This document shows, in pieces, positions 6,802 to 17,615 of a stretch of 31,480 nucleotides of DNA (position 1 is the first letter of the stretch; each line of letters opens with the position of its first letter). The DNA is from a virus (lineage: Duplodnaviria; Heunggongvirae; Uroviricota; Caudoviricetes): the IMG/VR virus record IMGVR_UViG_2531839484_000009; one strand, written 5' to 3'. The position numbers were made by a program, and so were the translations under genes. Under the pieces are notes generated by a model. That model was not told where the DNA came from, ran no database searches, and saw only the letters and a list, made by a program, of their open reading frames with translations.

Positions 6802-7821
6802 TCAGTATCCCAACATAGCCAGTGGATTTTTTGTTACAGCATCTTCTAAATGATCTGGCGAAAAATGAGCATAAACCATCGTCATTTTTATATCAGAGTG
6901 ACCAAGAATATCGCGTAGTACCAATATGTTTCCGCCATTCATCATGAAGTGACTGGCGAATGTATGGCGCAACACGTGTGTGCACTGGCCTTCAGGCAGG
7001 TCTATACCGGCTCGTTTTACTGCGCGCTCAAAAGCTTTTCTGCAGGGCGTGAATAGTTTCCCTCTGTTTTTGGGGAGTTCTTCATATAGCTCCTGAGATA
7101 TCGGTACGGTTCGGTTTTTCTTGCCTTTAGTTTTGGTGTAGGTGATCCGGTATTTTGATAATTGATGGCCCTGCAGGTTTTCGGCTTCACTCCATCTCGC
7201 GCCGGTGGCCAGACATATTTTTGCAACCGTCAGCAGACTAGAGCTTTGAGAATCGGCGCAGGCATCCAGCAGACGTTTAATTTCTTCCGGGGTCAGGAAC
7301 GCCAATTCACTCTCAGCAATTTTAAATGTTGGCAGCCCAGCAAGCGGGTTGGGGGCTGACCAGTGGCCCAGCTTTTTCAGTGTACCAAAAACAGATGATA
7401 GATTGCGCTGTTCAAGGTTTACCGTGCGGGGCTTAACGGGCGACATAAACGTGCCATCTTCATTTCGTACTTCACCTTTTAACCGTGCTTCGCGGTATTT
7501 CGTAAAGTCACCGGCTGTCAGTTCTGAAGCGATGGGATCGCCTAGACCATTACAGATAATACTAAGTTTCGCCATGAGGCGCTTGGGGTCTGTGAGTGTT
7601 TGACCATACAGGGAATACCACAGCTCAATTAATTCTGATAGATGTCGCCGATCTTCCTTTTCCCCCAGCCATGGTTTTTTGTTCACTTCTTCCATTGTGA
7701 AGCTTTCAAATGCAATAGCTTCGCCTTTGGTAGCAAATTGCTTACGCACGCGCTTACCATTGCGTCCATTGGGATAGCACTCACACAACCATTTTCCGTT
7801 CGGCTGTTTTCTGATGGTCAT
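6802..7821 (-). CDS. int: Tyrosine integrase, P2/186 type
   Basis: 339 aa; C-terminal catalytic region HVLRHTFASHFMMNGGNILVLRDILGHSDIKMTMVYAHF; located downstream of the repressor gene as in P2/186. Confidence 0.9.
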   Translation of the reverse strand: MTIRKQPNGKWLCECYPNGRNGKRVRKQFATKGEAIAFESFTMEEVNKKPWLGEKEDRRHLSELIELWYSLYGQTLTDPKRLMAKLSIICNGLGDPIASELTAGDFTKYREARLKGEVRNEDGTFMSPVKPRTVNLEQRNLSSVFGTLKKLGHWSAPNPLAGLPTFKIAESELAFLTPEEIKRLLDACADSQSSSLLTVAKICLATGARWSEAENLQGHQLSKYRITYTKTKGKKNRTVPISQELYEELPKNRGKLFTPCRKAFERAVKRAGIDLPEGQCTHVLRHTFASHFMMNGGNILVLRDILGHSDIKMTMVYAHFSPDHLEDAVTKNPLAMLGY

Positions 7822-7824
7822 AAG

Positions 7825-8475
7825 TTAGAGGTTCTTGATTACTTTGACTGCACGTCCTACGACTTCCACATCATCTACAGAACATTCAAATGAAGTGTCA
7901 TCTTGGTTAACTACTATTTTGTTTCCGGGTATGCGCGCAATTTTGACGATGTTTTTCATACCGTCGATGTCTATGAGCCAAATTCCGTTACTAAGCTGTT
8001 TTGCTGATGTATCAACAATGTAATTGCCGTCGTTAGCTTTGACGTACAAACAATATTCGGCTTTTCCGGGTATCAAAGTCTGATCAAGGAAAACATCCCC
8101 CATCTCTTCGAGCGTTCCGTTCTCAATGGTTGCCTGCCTTACTGATGGGATAACTATCTTTGAAAGGGGGCGAACTGTAGGTGAACTCTCATTTTTGAAC
8201 TTATTTTTTTCTTCTGTTTGAGGATACATTTCCCCTTGGCCCGTTGTCAGCCAAAGAAGAGAAATACCTGTTTCAAGGGCACATTGAATAACCCAGTCAG
8301 CAGGGAAGCTATCACGTAACATCCTGTTTGCCATGGTGCTTTTTGATGCTTCGAGGTGTTCAACCAACGCAATCTGAGTGTTGAAACCATAGGCAGTCAT
8401 CAGCCTTTTGATGGTCTCTCTTCCTCCCGTATTTGCACCTGTATTAATCTTCAAGATGAACTCTCCATTTGACAA
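7825..8475 (-). CDS. cI: CI-type immunity repressor (186 CI-like)
   Basis: N-terminal region TAYGFNTQIALVEHL...CALETGISLLWLTTGQG resembles the 186 CI HTH region as recalled; divergent from apl-like gene. Start could alternatively be the internal Met at 8400. Confidence 0.7.
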   Translation of the reverse strand: MSNGEFILKINTGANTGGRETIKRLMTAYGFNTQIALVEHLEASKSTMANRMLRDSFPADWVIQCALETGISLLWLTTGQGEMYPQTEEKNKFKNESSPTVRPLSKIVIPSVRQATIENGTLEEMGDVFLDQTLIPGKAEYCLYVKANDGNYIVDTSAKQLSNGIWLIDIDGMKNIVKIARIPGNKIVVNQDDTSFECSVDDVEVVGRAVKVIKNL

Positions 8476-8852: not shown

Positions 8853-9362
8853 ATGTTTGATTACAAGATTTCCAAACATCCGCATTTTGATGAAGCCTGT
8901 AGAGCTTTTGCACTTCGTCACAATATGGCGAAGCTGGCAGAACGTGCAGGAATGAATGTCCAGACTCTGCGAAACAAACTCAACCCCGATCAACCGCATC
9001 AGCTCAATGCGCCAGAAATCTGGCTGCTTACCGATCTGACTGAAGATTCAACGCTGATAGATGGTTTTCTGGCACAGATTCACTGTCTGCCATGTGTACC
9101 GATTAATGAGGTAGCAAAAGAGAAACTGCCGCATTACGTCATGAGTGCAACCGCAGAGATCGGGCGTGTTGCTGCAGGTGCGGTATCTGGCAATGTAAAA
9201 ACCAGTGCAGGTCGTCGTGATGCTATCAGCAGCATTAACTCTGTAACACGACTGATGGCGCTGGCTGCTGTTTCATTGCAGGCCCGTTTACAGGCTAACC
9301 CGGCGATGGCGAGTGCAGTTGATACCATGACTGGCCTTGGTGCTTCATTCGGTTTGCTGTGA
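8853..9362 (+). CDS. cII: CII-like lysogeny establishment regulator (186 CII family)
   Basis: 169 aa, position immediately after the apl-like gene; N-terminal HTH-like region; same length as 186 CII as recalled. Confidence 0.6.
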   Translation: MFDYKISKHPHFDEACRAFALRHNMAKLAERAGMNVQTLRNKLNPDQPHQLNAPEIWLLTDLTEDSTLIDGFLAQIHCLPCVPINEVAKEKLPHYVMSATAEIGRVAAGAVSGNVKTSAGRRDAISSINSVTRLMALAAVSLQARLQANPAMASAVDTMTGLGASFGLL

Positions 9363-11257: not shown

Positions 11258-13668
11258 GTCATGCCGATATGAACAACTGCTGCGGCTTTAACGAGGCTGC
11301 CGCAGCATTCTCATGGAACAGCCCGAAAAAGGCCATTAACCCTTATCTGGACCCGGCGGAAGTTGCGCCGGTTTCTGCGCTTTCAAACCTGATCACTCTG
11401 TACGCTGCCGATAACGAGCAGGAACAACTGCGCCGCGAGGCACTGAGTGATCAGGTCTGGGAGCGTTATTTCTTTAATGAATCCCGTGATCCTGTCCAGC
11501 GCGAAATGGAGCAGGATAAGCTAATTAGCCGGGCAAAGCTGGCGCATGAGCAGCAGCGTTTTAATCCGGACATGGTCATTCTGGCGGATGTCAACGCTCA
11601 GCCTTCCCATATCAGCAAGCCGCTCATGCAACGTATTAAATACTTCAGCAACCTGGGCAGGCCAAAGGCTTATTCCCGCTATTTGCGTGAGACGATTAAG
11701 CCATGCCTGGAACGACTGGAGCATGTACGCGACAGCCAGCTATCTGCATCTTTTCGTTTTATGGCAAGCCATGAAGGGCTGGACGGTCTGCTGATCCTGC
11801 CTGAAATGAGTCAGGATCAGGTGAAACGCCTGTCCACCCTTGTCGCTGCGCATATGAGCATGTGTCTTGATGCCGCTTGTGGTGATTTGTACGCCTCCGA
11901 TGATGTTAAGCCGGAAGAAATCCGCAAGACATGGGAAAAGGTGGCAGCAGAAACCCTGCGACTGGATGTCATACCGCCTGCGTTTGAGCAACTCCGCCGG
12001 AAAAGAAACCGCCGCAAACCTGTGCCCTATGAACTCATTCCGGGTTCGCTGGCGCGTATGCTGTGCGCCGACTGGTGGTATCGGAAATTATGGAAGATGC
12101 GTTGCGAATGGCGGGAAGAGCAGTTGCGTGCTGTCTGTCTGGTCAGCAAAAAAGCATCTCCCTATGTCAGCTATGAAGCCGTGATGCATAAACGTGAGCA
12201 GCGCCGTAAGTCGCTGGAGTTTTTCCGTTCTCATGAACTGGTGAACGAAGACGGCGACACGCTGGACATGGAGGATGTGGTAAACGCCAGCAGCAGCAAC
12301 CCGGCGCATCGCCGCAATGAGATGATGGCCTGCGTTAAAGGTCTGGAGCTTATCGCGGAAATGCGTGGTGACTGCGCCGTTTTCTACACCATCACCTGTC
12401 CGTCACGTTTCCATTCCACGCTAAATAACGGCAGGCCAAACCCGACCTGGACCAACGCGACAGTAAGACAAAGCAGCGATTATCTGGTCGGCATGTTTGC
12501 TGCATTTCGTAAGGCTATGCACAAAGCCGGATTGCGCTGGTATGGCGTGCGGGTGGCTGAGCCGCATCATGACGGTACAGTTCACTGGCACCTGTTGTGT
12601 TTTATGCGCAAAAAAGATCGCCGCGCCATTACTGCTTTGTTGCGTAAGTTTGCCATTCGTGAAGACCGCGAGGAGCTGGGGAATAACACGGGACCACGCT
12701 TTAAGTCTGAGTTGATTAACCCGCGCAAAGGAACGCCGACAAGCTACATCGCGAAATATATCAGCAAGAACATTGACGGGCGTGGTCTGGCTGGCGAGAT
12801 CAGCAAGGAAACGGGTAAATCTCTGCGTGATAACGCTGAATACGTGAATGCCTGGGCGTCTTTGCATCGTGTTCAGCAATTCCGCTTCTTTGGCATTCCG
12901 GGGCGTCAGGCTTACCGTGAACTGCGATTGCTGGCTGGTCAGGCGGCAAGGCAGCAGGGTGACAAAAAAGCAGGTGTGCCGGTACTGGATAACCCGCGCC
13001 TTGATGCCATTCTGGCTGCTGCTGATGCTGGTTGTTTTGCCACCTATATCATGAAGCAGGGAGGTGTACTGGTTCCCCGTAAATATCACCTCATCAGAAC
13101 TGCTTATGAAATTAACGAAGAGCCGACCGCCTATGGCGATCACGGTATTCGTATTTATGGCATCTGGTCACCCATTGCAGAGGGCAAGATCTGCACTCAT
13201 GCAGTGAAGTGGAAAATGGTTCGTAAGGCCGTTGACGTTCAGGAGGCGGCAGCCGACCAGGGCGCTTGCGCCCCTTGGACTCGTGGCAATAACTGTCCCC
13301 TTGCTGAAAATTTGAACCAACAGGAGAAAGATAAATCAGCTGATGGGGACCACAGAACGGACATTACCAGCATGGATGACAAGGAGTTGCACGATTACCT
13401 GCACAGTATGAACAAAAAAGAGCGCCGGGAACTGGCTGCAAGGGTACGCCTGGTGAAACCGAAACGGCGTAAAGACTACAAACAGCGAATTACAGACCAT
13501 CAGAGACTGCAGCTCGTCTATGAGCTGAAGTCCAGAGGATTTGATGGTAGCGAGAAAGAGGTCGATTTACTCCTTCGCGGCGGCAGTATTCCGTCAGGAG
13601 CAGGCTTGCGTATCTTCTATCGGAACCAGCGTTTGCGGGAAGATGATAAGTGGCGGAACCTGTATTAA
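11254..13668 (+). CDS. A: Replication initiation endonuclease (P2 gpA-like rolling-circle initiator)
   Basis: HUH-like VHWHLLCF and tyrosine motif [12 protein letters not shown]; 804 aa; position after dam. Confidence 0.85.
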
Positions 13669-13760
13669 TTACGCGGATTAACAATTCGTGCTCTTAATAA
13701 TACCAGGCATATCAGGCTGATGAACGTAAAAAAACGTTTTACATCAGTAAGATTATTATA

Positions 13761-13780
13761 TACTGTAAATATAAACAGTG
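13761..13780. promoter_or_regulatory. LexA (SOS) box TACTGTAAATATAAACAGTG
   Basis: CTGT-N8-ACAG with 17 of 20 matches to the recalled consensus TACTGTATATATATACAGTA; 42 bp upstream of ORF 13822. Confidence 0.6.
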
Positions 13781-13821
13781 GTTATACATACAGTATTTCT
13801 TGTGGTGTCATAGGAGGAAAG

Positions 13822-14010
13822 ATGCAGGACTATTTTTTGGAGTCTTTGAAGCTCCAGCGCATTGATTTTTTTCTTAAGCTTGTAGCGGCTAGTGAGTGTA
13901 GTGATGAAGAGAAGGGGCTGGCTCTGCAGTGGGTTTCTGAACTAACAGATGAACTCATGGCAAAAATCAGAACCCACGAATACAACCGCTCAATGGATGT
14001 CATCAGCTGA
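13822..14010 (+). CDS. Small hypothetical protein, possibly the N-terminal part of a Tum-like antirepressor
   Basis: ATG 13822 preceded by AGGAGGAAAG; immediately downstream of the LexA box. Confidence 0.35.
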   Translation: MQDYFLESLKLQRIDFFLKLVAASECSDEEKGLALQWVSELTDELMAKIRTHEYNRSMDVIS

Positions 14011-14020
14011 GGTGACTTTT

Positions 14021-14254
14021 ATGCGCATTGAAATAATGATCGATAAAGAGCAGAAGATTAGCCAGTCTACCCTGGACGCCCTTGAATCCGAGCTTTACCG
14101 CAATCTGCGCCCCCTGTATCCCAAAACGGTAATTCGCATTCGCAAAGGTAGCTCTAACAGTGTGGAACTAACCGGACTGCAACTGGACGAAGAAAGAAAA
14201 CAAGTGATGAAAATTATGCAGAAGGTGTGGGAAGACGACAGCTGGCTGCATTAA
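14021..14254 (+). CDS. DinI-like protein (DinI / 186 Tum C-terminal domain family)
   Basis: MRIEIMIDKEQ...LYRNL...VWEDDSWL resembles E. coli DinI (MRIEVTIAK...TWESADDW) as recalled; GAGGTGA upstream of ATG 14021. Confidence 0.7.
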   Translation: MRIEIMIDKEQKISQSTLDALESELYRNLRPLYPKTVIRIRKGSSNSVELTGLQLDEERKQVMKIMQKVWEDDSWLH

Positions 14255-14389
14255 GAAACGTTGCTGGCGTCTGAACTTGCTTCTGGCGTCAGCAAGGTTG
14301 AACAACCAGCCCTTGCGAGGCGTTAGCTCTGTAGTGCATGTCTATGCCGCATGAGATCGCATGATCGTTTGAGGATCGTTTTTGCTAAG

Positions 14390-14414
14390 GCCCGCCAGAA
14401 CTGGCGGGCTTTTG
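14390..14414 (+). terminator. Rho-independent terminator after the dinI-like gene
   Basis: Perfect stem GCCCGCCAG / CTGGCGGGC followed by TTTT. Confidence 0.5.
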
Positions 14415-14458
14415 CGTAGATCATGCAGGTGCATGAAAACCACTACATAAAGCGGGCA

Positions 14459-14471
14459 GGCGTGGCGGGGA
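14459..14471. other. Candidate cos (cohesive end) element, GGCGTGGCGGGGA
   Basis: 13-nt identity to the start of the 186 cohesive end as recalled (GGCGTGGCGGGGAAAGCAT); GC-rich element just before the AT-rich cargo. Confidence 0.35.
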
Positions 14472-14542
14472 TACGAGCGCGCGGAAAGCTATTAAGATTT
14501 GTCATTTCTATCTTTCTTATGTAATGTTAATAAAAGCATCTT

Positions 14543-14599
14543 AATATTGATGAAAGTAGCAATTGTTCTTAATAGTACGAAGGATTTTTCATCAATATG
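14543..14599. promoter_or_regulatory. 13-bp inverted repeat AATATTGATGAAA ... TTTCATCAATATG (12 of 13) upstream of the ATPase cassette
   Basis: Read directly; arms separated by 31 bp, ending 37 bp before ATG 14636. Confidence 0.35.
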
Positions 14600-14635
14600 A
14601 AAATTAATAAATCATGTGAAAGGAAATGAAAACGG

Positions 14636-16606
14636 ATGATAAGAAATATATATATAAAGAATTTTAAAACATTAAATATGACATCATATATCGAACTTAA
14701 AGAATGTTCATTTTTGTGTGGCGCTAACAGTAGTGGTAAAAGTTCACTTATACAAACACTTCTAATGTTAGCTCAAACTTTTTCTAATAGATATCAAGAT
14801 GATAGTATGGTTTTAAATGGGTCTTTAGCAAGACTGGGTTCATTTACAGATATCAAAAAGCACAACTCTACAGAGGAAGTTATTACTATTGGTTTCACTT
14901 TTGATGTTGATGAGGCGTATTATCTTCGTGATAATACAATAAATTCAATTAGATGTGAGTTTGTTATTGGTAGAAGAGACCGCTCTGTAGCAAAAATAGA
15001 CGAAGATTATCATCCTATAATAATTTCTGCGAAATATTTTATTAGTAAGGGGGGGAATAATAAACAACAGGATTATATACACTTCCAATGTTCAGGTGAT
15101 TATTTTTATTCTAAAGAAGTGGTATATGACGTAGTGTCATTCAACACCTCTGAATATAATGATTTGAAGAAGAGGTTTCCAAGTCTAAAGATTTTAAGTA
15201 TTGCTAAATCTGGGGATTTAATTCCTTCTTTAATAAATATTCAATATGATAAAACAAAAAAAGAAAGCTATGAAATAATTAATTTTTTAACTAGAAAGCA
15301 TAGCACACAGAGGGGGGGGTATTTTTTAGATGATGAGGATTTTGGTGATGATATTCTTATCCCTAGAGAATTCTCCGCAAGAGTTTTGGAGTTGATAAAG
15401 GAAGAACGTAATAAATTATTGGACGAGTTTGACTTGCCAAACGATCTTCTTGACATCATGACACATAGTCATATTGCTAAAGATGATTATATCTCCTATA
15501 GCTATGACAAAAATAAATTATCGCAGAGAGCTAAGGAATTATTAAACGAAATTAAAGGTAATTTCATTGAAATAAACTATTCTTTACAATCAAGTGATAT
15601 TCCTTTAATTTTTGTAAATAAAGCTGTTAGTATAGTTGATTGGAAATCTTGGTTAGATGCTTTGGATGAGAAGAAAAGGAAAAGTTTAATCGTATTGTTA
15701 GAAAAGCACAGGGACAGTCTACAAGCAATATGGTATAACAATATTGATGTTAAAATGACAAGCGACGTATATAGTTCGCACCTTTTACAAGATGTAGAAA
15801 ATGCAATGGTGTACTGTTTCTCGCGAAGCCTAAAGTACCTTGGGCCTCTACGACATGAACCTCAGGCTGTCTATTCATCGAGCCCTTATGATGCAAACAC
15901 CGTAGGTTTGAAAGGTGAATTTACCGCCTCTCTTCTTCATCGAAATCGCGCTAATTTTATATGTTACAGCTCCCCTTCTATAATTAATGGTAAAATAAAC
16001 GTTAGAGAAAAGTATGATACTCTAAACAACGCTTGTAAAGAGTGGTTGTCATTTTTAGGTGTTGTTGAGGAAGTAAGAACTACTGATAAAGGTAAATTAG
16101 GCTATGAGTTATACGTTAAAACTTCTAGCGGCGAAAAATGGCAAGATCTCACTCACGTAGGTGTTGGTGTCAGTCAAGTACTGCCTATTGTATTGATGTT
16201 CTTGAATTCAGATCCTTCAGATGTGTTAATTTTTGAACAACCGGAATTACATTTACATCCTAAAGTTCAATCTAAATTATGTGACCTTTTTCTTATAATG
16301 GCAAATACTGGTCGCCAGTGCATTATTGAAACTCACAGTGAGTATATGATCAATAGATTGAGGCTTAGAGTTGCGCAAGATTTAGACAATAATTACCTCA
16401 AAAAATCAGCGCTATATTTTATAAATAAAGTTAATGGGATATCAGAATTCCAAAATATAAATATTAACAAGTATGGTGCGATTCCTGAATGGCCTGAAGA
16501 TTTCTTTGATCAAACAGATAAGGAAGTTGAAAAGATTTTAATGGAGGCAAGCATAAAGAAAAATAAAGAAAAAGCTAAGAGGTTTACCAATGACAGCGGT
16601 TATTAA
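14636..16606 (+). CDS. ABC/OLD-type (AAA_15/AAA_21-like) ATPase with Walker A and Walker B separated by ~500 aa
   Basis: Walker A GANSSGKSS near the N-terminus; Walker-B-like VLIFEQPELHLHP and H-loop-like IIETHS near residue 530-560; strongly AT-rich. Confidence 0.7.
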   Translation: MIRNIYIKNFKTLNMTSYIELKECSFLCGANSSGKSSLIQTLLMLAQTFSNRYQDDSMVLNGSLARLGSFTDIKKHNSTEEVITIGFTFDVDEAYYLRDNTINSIRCEFVIGRRDRSVAKIDEDYHPIIISAKYFISKGGNNKQQDYIHFQCSGDYFYSKEVVYDVVSFNTSEYNDLKKRFPSLKILSIAKSGDLIPSLINIQYDKTKKESYEIINFLTRKHSTQRGGYFLDDEDFGDDILIPREFSARVLELIKEERNKLLDEFDLPNDLLDIMTHSHIAKDDYISYSYDKNKLSQRAKELLNEIKGNFIEINYSLQSSDIPLIFVNKAVSIVDWKSWLDALDEKKRKSLIVLLEKHRDSLQAIWYNNIDVKMTSDVYSSHLLQDVENAMVYCFSRSLKYLGPLRHEPQAVYSSSPYDANTVGLKGEFTASLLHRNRANFICYSSPSIINGKINVREKYDTLNNACKEWLSFLGVVEEVRTTDKGKLGYELYVKTSSGEKWQDLTHVGVGVSQVLPIVLMFLNSDPSDVLIFEQPELHLHPKVQSKLCDLFLIMANTGRQCIIETHSEYMINRLRLRVAQDLDNNYLKKSALYFINKVNGISEFQNININKYGAIPEWPEDFFDQTDKEVEKILMEASIKKNKEKAKRFTNDSGY

Positions 16607-17615
16607 ATTTGAATATTTAATATCTCCATTGATATGCACTGGTGGGCAGGTAGATGAGCATGTCAATGGTCTGCGATTATTAAAAGAATTAGTTAGTAGT
16701 TCTGACATAGACGTCAAATGCGAGGACTCCATACTCAGCAATATGCAAGAGGCTGGTTATTATCCATGTGCTAAAATATTGAGTAGGGCATTCCCTGGTG
16801 GTGAAGATTGCGTTCATAGCGCTCAAGATGTTTCAAAAATAATAAATAATATAATTAGCCATTTCGAAGAGTGCAATCCTGAAGTTACTTCTCATGAAAT
16901 CGAGTGGGACTCGTTTACGGTTGTGCCGCCTATAGAAACAATATCAGATGAGAGAAAAAATAATGTCGAAATTTTCTTGAGGAATATTCTTTCAAGAAAA
17001 TTTCTATTAAGTGAAGAGTTTTCTTTCTTTTATTCTCAAAGAAATAAGCCAATTCTTCAGTCCCAAAAGTTTTCATTAAGCGGTACAATTAGCGATATAT
17101 ACCCTGCGGATAGTGTAGCAATACCCATTGAATTAAGTAATGAAATAATTGCTCACGGTAATATTAATGATTTCATCAATAATATTGATGGGTACTCTTT
17201 ATATAAAATGGCTAGTAATATATCCGCTCTTAAATGTGCTCTCTTTTTTGGTTGTGTAAATTTTTTGAAAAATAATTATACAGGTGAAAAGTTCGAATGG
17301 GATGATTTCAAAATAGGAGCAGATTTTTTTGATTCGTTGCTAAGACATCAAGGTGCTTTTGAACAAGAGTTTTCCTCAGTAGTTTATGAAACTATAGTGC
17401 AAGTTTTATGTCGCCATCCTAAAAATGAAGTAAAACCATTTAGAGTATCTTCCAAGTCTACTGAACAAAGAACCCATGGTGATTTAAGGGCCTTTCGCAC
17501 CCATATCACTTCTAGACATCAAGCATTGAGACTAATGTTTTGGGTTGATTCCAATCAAATAATCACATTGGCAAATATTGGTCCGAAATTTGAAGAATCT
17601 ATTTCTTTGCCATGA
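16590..17615 (+). CDS. Uncharacterised partner protein of the ATPase (341 aa), putative effector
   Basis: ATG 16590 overlaps the ATPase gene by 17 nt, AGAGG 8 nt upstream; no recognisable HNH or clear TOPRIM motifs; C-terminal RAFRTH / RTHITSRH fit an Rx4-6H pattern. Confidence 0.5.
   Translation: MTAVIKFEYLISPLICTGGQVDEHVNGLRLLKELVSSSDIDVKCEDSILSNMQEAGYYPCAKILSRAFPGGEDCVHSAQDVSKIINNIISHFEECNPEVTSHEIEWDSFTVVPPIETISDERKNNVEIFLRNILSRKFLLSEEFSFFYSQRNKPILQSQKFSLSGTISDIYPADSVAIPIELSNEIIAHGNINDFINNIDGYSLYKMASNISALKCALFFGCVNFLKNNYTGEKFEWDDFKIGADFFDSLLRHQGAFEQEFSSVVYETIVQVLCRHPKNEVKPFRVSSKSTEQRTHGDLRAFRTHITSRHQALRLMFWVDSNQIITLANIGPKFEESISLP

Follow-up and report, generated by a model that had tools for sequence, protein, structure and literature searches.

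The question raised by this locus is whether a short piece of DNA behind the replicase gene of a prophage, consisting of a LexA box and two small open reading frames, makes the prophage inducible by DNA damage, and whether it does so with one gene or with two. The window, i.e. the whole 31,480-nt stretch of DNA that was analysed, had been read in an earlier note as possibly containing an equivalent of Tum, the antirepressor of phage 186, either as two cistrons or as one gene interrupted by a frameshift. According to the present analysis the locus very likely represents the split tumA-tumB version of the SOS operon of Fels-2/186-like prophages, in which the first gene (ORF1) would encode an antirepressor of the immunity repressor CI and the second (ORF2) a separate DinI-like protein.

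The window is a P2/186-like (Peduoviridae) prophage, of the Fels-2/186-like kind. Its gene A replicase, an 804-aa ORF ending at position 13668, is clearly recognised (Pfam Phage_GPA, E 6.6e-128), and ORF1 starts at 13822, directly after gene A and on the same strand. The order of gene A followed by the SOS locus is common to 186, PSP3, Fels-2 and the prophage of E. coli HS. On the 5' side of the locus lie an integrase, a 186-type CI, a 186-type CII (8853-9362) and a Dam methylase, and on the 3' side two cargo genes, one of them at 14636, and beyond these the genes for portal and terminase, which are encoded on the other strand. The CI immunity repressor, which is the presumed target of ORF1, is encoded on the minus strand at 7825-8475 and contains the Pfam domains Phage_CI_repr (helix-turn-helix, HTH) and Phage_CI_C; it belongs to the 186 type and not to the cleavable lambda type. 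Close relatives of the locus are common. A 752-bp region is 94-98% identical to many Peduoviridae of Escherichia, Klebsiella and Salmonella, and of 5426 complete E. coli genomes 1125 (~21%) carry the locus.

The predicted LexA operator (SOS box), TACTGTAAATATAAACAGTG, lies on the plus strand at 13761-13780 and shares 17 of its 20 positions with the LexA consensus TACTGTATATATATACAGTA. The near-consensus box before a 62-aa ORF that had been reported earlier is confirmed, with 41 nt between it and the ATG of ORF1. When the 20-nt consensus was searched for with at most three mismatches, TACTGTAAATATAAACAGTG was the sole match in the 31.5-kb window, and 100 shuffles gave none. The bare core CTGT-N8-ACAG was present in at least one copy in 28 of 100 shuffles and is weak evidence alone, and the case for the LexA box therefore rests on the full 20-mer together with its conservation. 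An TATACAGT element is also present downstream of the LexA box.

The conservation of the box extends well beyond the closest relatives. The whole LexA box is identical in Fels-2, E. coli HS, 813R9, 4LV2017 and RE2010, and TACTGT-N8-ACAGT is kept in SEN8, MLG42, SopEPhi, ST437phi4.1, ESSI-2, ESSI2_ev040, PSP3 and 186 despite differing flanks. On the plus strand at 13738-13743, 17 nt 5' of TACTGT, there is a -35-like hexamer, TTTACA. The pattern TT(T/C)ACA, 17-18 nt, TACTGT-N8-ACAGT(G/A/T) recurs upstream in the relatives, even where the flanks cannot be aligned. In a set of 17 loci (the window and 16 relatives) the footprint of a LexA box and a -35 hexamer 17-18 nt apart was found in 16, and the record of ST15-OXA48phi14.1 has ACAT where the others have ACAG. 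We read this footprint as a promoter whose -10 hexamer, TACTGT, is the left arm of the predicted LexA box, the counterpart of the promoter p95 for which the same is annotated in 186. A generic promoter scan gave no sigma-70 site at this position, because the -10 hexamer is weak and agrees with the consensus at only three of six positions. The promoter was instead positioned by comparison with the annotated p95 of 186 and by conservation.

Both genes have their own Shine-Dalgarno sequence on the plus strand. For ORF1 this is AGGAGG at 13812-13817, read from the sequence and kept in relatives, and for ORF2 it is GAGGTGA at 14009-14015, which overlaps the stop codon of ORF1. A predicted intrinsic terminator at 14387-14415, also on the plus strand, would close the SOS operon before the cargo genes. 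Its 11-bp stem is rich in G+C and leads into UUUUG. The folding energy is -23.4 kcal/mol and the z-score -4.3; none of 200 shuffles folded as well, and the element is common to phage 813R9. The terminator scan also proposed a hairpin at 13999-14016, at the junction of ORF1 and ORF2. It was rejected as a regulatory element, as shuffles fold equally well (z-score -1.15) and the junction sequence is not conserved among relatives. A search of 13600-14700 against Rfam gave no match.

ORF1 (13822-14010, plus strand; ATG at 13822, TGA at 14008-14010) encodes a 62-aa protein that is identical at 61 of 62 positions to STM2728 of Fels-2 and likewise to ECHS_RS04495 of E. coli HS. Its gene is under strong purifying selection (dN/dS 0.07-0.08 at dS ~1). 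Among 5.8 billion proteins 484 matches were obtained, and the best 120 of the 484 were without exception closely related proteins with a length of about 62 aa. When 1.84 billion cluster representatives were searched with a profile, 88 families were reached, nearly all of them stand-alone proteins of 50-90 aa, with the family pattern M-D-x-F-x-E-x3-LQRI-x-L-x2-RLVA-x3-C-x3-DKELA-x-W-x-AEL. In the AlphaFold model (pLDDT 91) ORF1 is predicted to be a two-helix hairpin, with helices at residues 2-23 and 28-61 and the conserved Cys26 at the turn.

The relationship of ORF1 to Tum depends on how it is looked for. Pairwise BLASTP gave no alignment between ORF1 and 186 Tum, between ORF1 and PSP3 TumA, or between PSP3 TumA and 186 Tum. 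A hidden Markov model built from 40 members of the ORF1 family, however, matched residues 5-43 of 186 Tum with an E-value of 6.5e-9 (33 bits), the best decoy reaching E 0.6 in a database that included 3011 six-frame decoy ORFs; PSP3 TumA was not significantly matched by this model. The PHROG families supply the remaining connections. 186 Tum matches phrog_698, the family of ORF1 (2.4e-5), phrog_8554 (1.4e-11) and phrog_1993, the family of PSP3 TumA (1e-22), and ORF1 in turn matches phrog_8554 (2.4e-8) and phrog_1993 (2.2e-3). Because of these profile and PHROG links, we assign the N-terminal modules of ORF1, PSP3 TumA and 186 Tum to one divergent superfamily, at the level of sequence. The earlier note had called for alignment of both ORFs to 186 Tum and would have counted a lack of similarity between ORF1 and the N-terminal half of Tum, together with a lack of LexA-dependent regulation, against its proposal. 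The alignment succeeded directly for ORF2 and, for ORF1, at the profile level but not pairwise; similarity to the N-terminal half was thus found, and pairwise BLASTP alone would wrongly have spoken against the proposal. What the note had stated of 186, a Tum protein with a LexA-controlled promoter and a DinI-like C-terminal half, agrees with p95 and its LexA site in the 186 record and with the resemblance of that half to ORF2.

Genetic evidence for the function of ORF1 comes from the prophage of E. coli HS. In that strain an in-frame tum deletion and a lexA(Ind-) allele each abolish mitomycin-C-induced lysis and the formation of virion foci (Phollow; PMC11195241, PMC12055606), and the SOS reporter remains intact in the tum deletion (PMC11195241, PMC12055606). 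The primers used for the deletion, NHR24 and NHR28 (GTGGTGTCATAGGAGGAAAGATG and TGAGGTGACTTTTATGCGCATTG), have exact matches in the window at 13802-13824 and 14008-14030. Because they match the ATG and the stop of ORF1, the 'tum' deletion must have removed exactly the 62-aa ORF1 and left the DinI-like gene in place.

The mechanism that we propose follows from these comparisons. In a lysogen, LexA of the host would bind at 13761-13780, over the -10 hexamer of a weak sigma-70 promoter, and hold the operon off. After DNA damage RecA would become active, LexA would cleave itself, and a short bicistronic transcript ending at about 14387-14415 would be formed. The 62-aa helical hairpin of ORF1 would then bind the 186-type CI (7825-8475) non-covalently, which would derepress the early lytic promoter and lead to lytic growth, and ORF2, translated separately, would probably tune the SOS signal through RecA filaments. 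LexA control, SOS transcription and the requirement for ORF1 were shown genetically at the near-identical locus of E. coli HS and may be carried over to the window by analogy. Binding of CI by the ORF1 family would be expected from 186 Tum, which attaches to CI and so keeps it off its operators (Shearwin et al. 1998, as described in papers that cite it), and the particular CI allele of the window presumably responds to ORF1.

It is on the side of CI that the most serious alternative arises. An antirepressor that is specific for its repressor might be expected to vary together with it, but among phages with 98-100% identity in ORF1 the CI proteins are only 37-83% identical overall to that of the window, and an identical ORF1 occurs with CI proteins that are only 37-51% identical overall. 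As a test of antirepressor specificity, strict co-variation of ORF1 and CI fails for the whole of CI and for its C-terminal domain and holds loosely for the N-terminal domain. Across the phages of the ORF1 family the N-terminal HTH domain of CI is 51-94% identical to that of the window, compared to 39-43% in 186 and PSP3, whereas identity in the C-terminal domain falls to 25-45%. When 13 CI proteins of the ORF1 family were compared, the truncated one of ESSI2_ev040 included, 18 residues (RD.FPA.W.IQC..ETG.S..WL..G.G) were invariant within a C-terminal segment of the N-terminal domain that spans about 33 columns. The full-length CI proteins of the family also share SKST(M/L)A.R just N-terminal to this segment, and the CI proteins of 186 and PSP3 differ across it. 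As the conservation is concentrated there, the TumA family may target the N-terminal domain of CI.

It is possible that the operon is controlled by SOS but that ORF1 is mismatched to the resident CI, in which case the prophage would be non-inducible and ORF1 would act in trans on other P2-like prophages, or not at all. The window CI is only 60-62% identical to that of Fels-2 and 42% identical to that of HS, the two backgrounds in which induction is documented, with ORF1 98% identical to both; the immunity and tum regions are clearly reassorted by recombination, and the antirepressors of Gifsy and Fels-1 do act in trans (PMC3121763). We nevertheless consider a mismatch improbable, as the window CI carries the segment with the 18 invariant residues and lies within a family in which the N-terminal domain is kept as described above. 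In addition, the CI proteins of HS and Fels-2 share little beyond the N-terminal domain, as judged by inspection of the alignment, yet according to the literature both phages are LexA-dependent, and HS is also tum-dependent. The reading that we prefer is still that ORF1 acts on the CI of its own prophage. A bolder form of it, which we put forward tentatively and would not yet rely on, is that one near-invariant TumA allele (at least 98% identical in Fels-2, HS, many Klebsiella phages and the window) might serve as a 'master key' for the N-terminal HTH domain of CI, with the motif SKST(M/L)A.R..RD.FPA(D/E)W(V/I)IQC..ETG, and not for the divergent C-terminal oligomerisation domain. If this were true, heteroimmune P2-like prophages, with CI proteins 37-83% identical, would be induced, and in polylysogens cross-induced, by the same small protein.

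A second alternative is that ORF1 is an SOS-induced small protein with some other function, e.g. a toxin or another regulator, and that induction proceeds through another factor. The annotation of the family leaves room for such a view. ORF1 had no match in Pfam, NCBIfam or the sequences of the PDB, it is listed in PHROGs as 'unknown function', and its gene is labelled 'hypothetical protein' in all the sampled E. coli records and 'levan regulatory domain protein' in some phage records; nor does ORF1 co-vary tightly with CI. However, deletion of exactly ORF1 in E. coli HS abolishes induction while the SOS response is intact, and ORF1 has its homology to 186 Tum outside the DinI-like half and shares its position and promoter with tum and tumA, which makes a different function quite unlikely.

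ORF2 (14021-14254, plus strand; ATG at 14021) encodes 77 aa in the +1 frame relative to ORF1 and is a convincing member of the DinI family. It covers the Pfam DinI model PF06183 from position 1 to 63 of 63 with an E-value of 1.1e-22 (80.6 bits, cut-off 24.2) and matches phrog_189, 'RecA filament binding protein DinI', with 5.5e-29. It is identical at 76 of 77 positions to the E. coli HS gene, and its identity is 77% to PSP3 TumB, 41% to the C-terminal half of 186 Tum and 30% to E. coli DinI. It can be aligned to the DinI structure PDB 1GHH over residues 1-75, with I65, Q67, W70 and W75 invariant, and it keeps the C-terminal helix Q..W(E/Q)...W, the helix that in E. coli DinI has conserved acidic and aromatic residues and contacts RecA. 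The score against NCBIfam NF007893, the equivalog model for chromosomal DinI, is 43.3 bits. As this is under the equivalog cut-off of 111, ORF2 is classified as a phage DinI-like paralogue and not as host DinI. The gene is likewise under strong purifying selection (dN/dS 0.07-0.10 at dS ~1). Modulation of RecA filaments by ORF2 is probable, considering its homology to DinI and the 186 annotation 'modulates SOS induction'. For induction itself ORF2 is probably dispensable. In the Gifsy phages deletion of the dinI homologues had no effect on induction (Lemire 2011, PMC3121763).

The layout of the two genes decides whether they should be regarded as one gene or two. The antirepressor and DinI parts lie in separate frames, as ORF1 stops at 14008-14010 and ORF2 begins after a spacer of 10 nt in the +1 frame. 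This is the stop, frame change and 77-aa DinI-like ORF with its own RBS that had been described earlier, and the DinI frame does continue upstream, as also stated then; it forms an ORF at 13949-14254 with 24 extra codons from an ATG, but this extension is not conserved in relatives. Counted in open codons, it measures 25 in the window, 14 in SEN8, SopEPhi and ST437phi4.1, four in MLG42 and one in PSP3. An upstream open run of about 24 codons is unremarkable by chance. The spacer between the stop of ORF1 and the ATG of the DinI gene is 10 nt in the window, Fels-2 and HS, 11 nt in SEN8, SopEPhi and ST437phi4.1 and 12 nt in MLG42, and the frame of the second gene relative to the first therefore varies between +1, +2 and 0 and is not conserved. 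The RBS and ATG of ORF2, on the other hand, are always kept in relatives that have the DinI gene, the purine-rich character of the RBS being retained despite the differing spacer. ESSI-2 and ESSI2_ev040 have a homologue of ORF1 (41-49% identity) behind the LexA box and lack the DinI gene. Among 30 E. coli records drawn across the whole ranking of matches, all 30 annotate two genes, a hypothetical protein and a DinI-like protein, and no fused ORF1-DinI protein of about 140 aa was found in the profile search of 1.84 billion representative proteins.

Judged by its sequence, the locus is therefore assigned to the split two-cistron tumA-tumB form and not to the fused 186-type Tum. Of the two forms of a Tum equivalent considered in the earlier note, the two-cistron one is supported by position, promoter, alignment of ORF2, profile homology of ORF1 and the genetics of HS, while the frameshifted one fell on the variable spacer and the lack of any fused form. 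A single Tum-like gene, read by programmed +1 frameshifting or seemingly split near 14008-14021 through a fault in sequencing or assembly, could be argued from the joining of both parts in 186 Tum and from the DinI frame that runs open into ORF1, but it is hardly conceivable and was rejected, given the spacers of 10, 11 and 12 nt with the shrinking upstream extension, the own RBS and ATG of ORF2, the occurrence of the split structure both in independent phage isolates and in 1125 of the 5426 complete E. coli genomes, the ESSI-2-type phages with ORF1 alone, the absence of fused homologues, and the fact that even 186 yields a free DinI-like product through an internal start.

With the locus read as a two-gene SOS operon, the prophage is very probably inducible by SOS through an antirepressor and not through RecA-mediated cleavage of its repressor. 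This route bears on the prediction of prophage mobilisation under DNA-damaging antibiotics. The practical gain is one of annotation, as a common 'hypothetical' 62-aa gene is identified as the induction switch by the genetics of HS and by homology to 186 Tum.

The arrangement of the operon has close parallels. The locus of Fels-2 (STM2728 and STM2726.1) is ~97-98% identical in DNA from the stop of gene A to the stop of the DinI gene, and it agrees fully with the window in the LexA box, in the spacer of 10 nt and in the ribosome-binding sites of both genes. STM2726.1 is the counterpart of ORF2 and is annotated as similar to PSP3 TumB. The two phages diverge directly after the DinI stop, where Fels-2 has different cargo, and they differ in CI to the extent given above. 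In the E. coli HS prophage, DuoHS (ECHS_RS04495 and the DinI-like ECHS_RS04500), the DNA does not differ from that of the window anywhere between the -35 hexamer and the ATG, and again it is CI and the downstream cargo that differ. According to Lemire 2011 (PMC3121763), tum is split by a stop codon in Fels-2 and PSP3 and the antirepressor activity in PSP3 resides in the upstream gene, this being credited in part to G. Christie. For the split tum of Fels-2 and the associated lexA-null lethality, the primary source is Bunny, Liu and Roth 2002, as cited in Lemire 2011 (PMC3121763). The text of Nilsson and Haggard-Ljungquist 2011 (PMC3448106) does not mention tum.

PSP3 shows the same two-gene layout, tumA and tumB, after gene A, with the LexA box 20 nt upstream. 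Its tumA encodes 60 aa and is annotated 'similar to 5' end 186 tum; UV induction of prophage', and tumB is DinI-like. In contrast to the window, tumA and tumB are in the same frame and separated by a stop and one codon. TumA of PSP3 and ORF1 share only the motif C-x3-D-x2-LAL-x2-IA-x-L, and both reach 186 Tum through the PHROG families. In 186, tum also follows gene A and is transcribed from p95, with a LexA site that starts with the six bases of the -10 hexamer; like the products of the window, Tum combines profile-level homology at its N-terminus with a DinI-like C-terminal half. Unlike the window, 186 has both parts in one polypeptide of 146 aa, where a linker of some 25 aa is present, and orf97 follows in the same operon. 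A free DinI-like 'truncated Tum' is nevertheless made in 186 from an annotated internal GTG (29292), at residue 71 of Tum, with which residue 1 of ORF2 aligns.

More distant parallels are found in Gifsy-1, Gifsy-2, Gifsy-3 and Fels-1 (GfoA, GftA, FsoA), which have a LexA-repressed operon with a small antirepressor and a DinI homologue, and repressors that are not cleaved. Trans-acting cross-talk of antirepressors has been described among the Gifsy phages and Fels-1 (PMC3121763). These are, however, lambdoid phages with the reverse gene order, dinI being first, and their antirepressor and repressor families would seem to be different. The locus of the window can thus be explained without new biology: the tumA-dinI arrangement is already known, having been described in PSP3 and Fels-2 and validated genetically in E. 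coli HS.

The 62-aa TumA-like gene of the tum operon (13822-14010, + strand), the presumed antirepressor gene, is annotated under several labels: it is named 'hypothetical protein' in the sampled RefSeq E. coli genomes, certain Klebsiella phage records call it 'levan regulatory domain protein', and the PHROGs label for its family (phrog_698) is 'unknown function'. Some gene callers place its start upstream at the ATG at 13720, giving a 96-aa product whose reading frame spans the LexA box.

Immediately 3' of the LexA box lies a second conserved element, CAGTGGTTATACATACAGTA (13776-13795), which matches the LexA consensus at 15 of 20 positions; its right arm (ACAGTA) is perfect, whereas the left arm matches poorly. 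In the locus comparison its TATACAG core was kept in the diverged Fels-2-like relatives SEN8, MLG42, SopEPhi and ST437phi4.1, the leaders of which diverge shortly 3' of this core. A LexA half-site or some 5'-UTR feature could account for this element. Among the 17 loci compared, the LexA box itself was broken only in that of the Klebsiella phage ST15-OXA48phi14.1 (L009, about 6940-6960), where the right arm reads ACAT and not ACAG; this may be an operator-down mutation with leaky induction, or a sequencing error.

The DinI-like gene, the second gene of the operon, is not found in every relative. In both ESSI2_ev040 (L016, 6953-7213) and Cronobacter ESSI-2 (L017, about 7001-7222), the replication gene A is followed by a LexA box with a TumA homologue behind it, which shows 49 and 41 % identity, respectively, and has a longer Gly-rich tail. 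In the locus comparison no DinI-like gene followed the TumA homologue in these two phages, and a convergent transcriptional regulator was present in its place. In Escherichia phage 500465-1 (L015, 4696-5013) the DinI-like gene has lost one nucleotide directly after the start (GAAATAATG to GAATAATG). Gene A of the same phage is interrupted by IS100-type sequences, and the record has the look of a prophage in decay.

A variable slot separates the tum operon from the portal gene and in the window holds two cargo ORFs (14636-17615, + strand) overlapping by 17 nt. The first encodes a 656-aa ABC/OLD-like ATPase with Pfam matches to AAA_15, AAA_21 and DUF3696 and PADLOC matches to NsnB (4e-78), HEC-03B and AriA, while the second, of 341 aa, had no match in Pfam or PADLOC. 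Defence-type genes in this slot differ from relative to relative, being a retron St85 effector and polymerase in 4LV2017, SEFIR in ST15phi14.1, AIPR in RE2010, TIR in 500465-1 and Hypoth_Ymh in 813R9, and the slot looks like a defence hotspot.

The pairing of TumA alleles with CI, the immunity repressor and presumed TumA target, was compared between the window (CI at 7825-8475, - strand; TumA at 13822-14010, + strand) and loci L004, L006-L014 and L019. Near-identical TumA alleles were paired with CI repressors having only 37-83 % overall identity to the window CI. The N-terminal HTH domain is duplicated in the CIs of 4LV2017 (L006, 498-1439) and PSP3 (L005, 3219-4079), and the end of one duplicated HTH is visible in that of ST11-OXA245phi3.1 (L007, 1-774). 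The annotated lengths of these three CIs, the last of which is cut by the start of its record, are 257-313 aa, compared to about 190-216 aa elsewhere. As near-identical TumA proteins occur with divergent CIs that nevertheless share one motif in the N-terminal HTH domain, the sequences hint that TumA may target this domain, and also that the same TumA could cross-induce heteroimmune prophages. The motif is invariant across all phages carrying this TumA family, but differs in 186 and PSP3.
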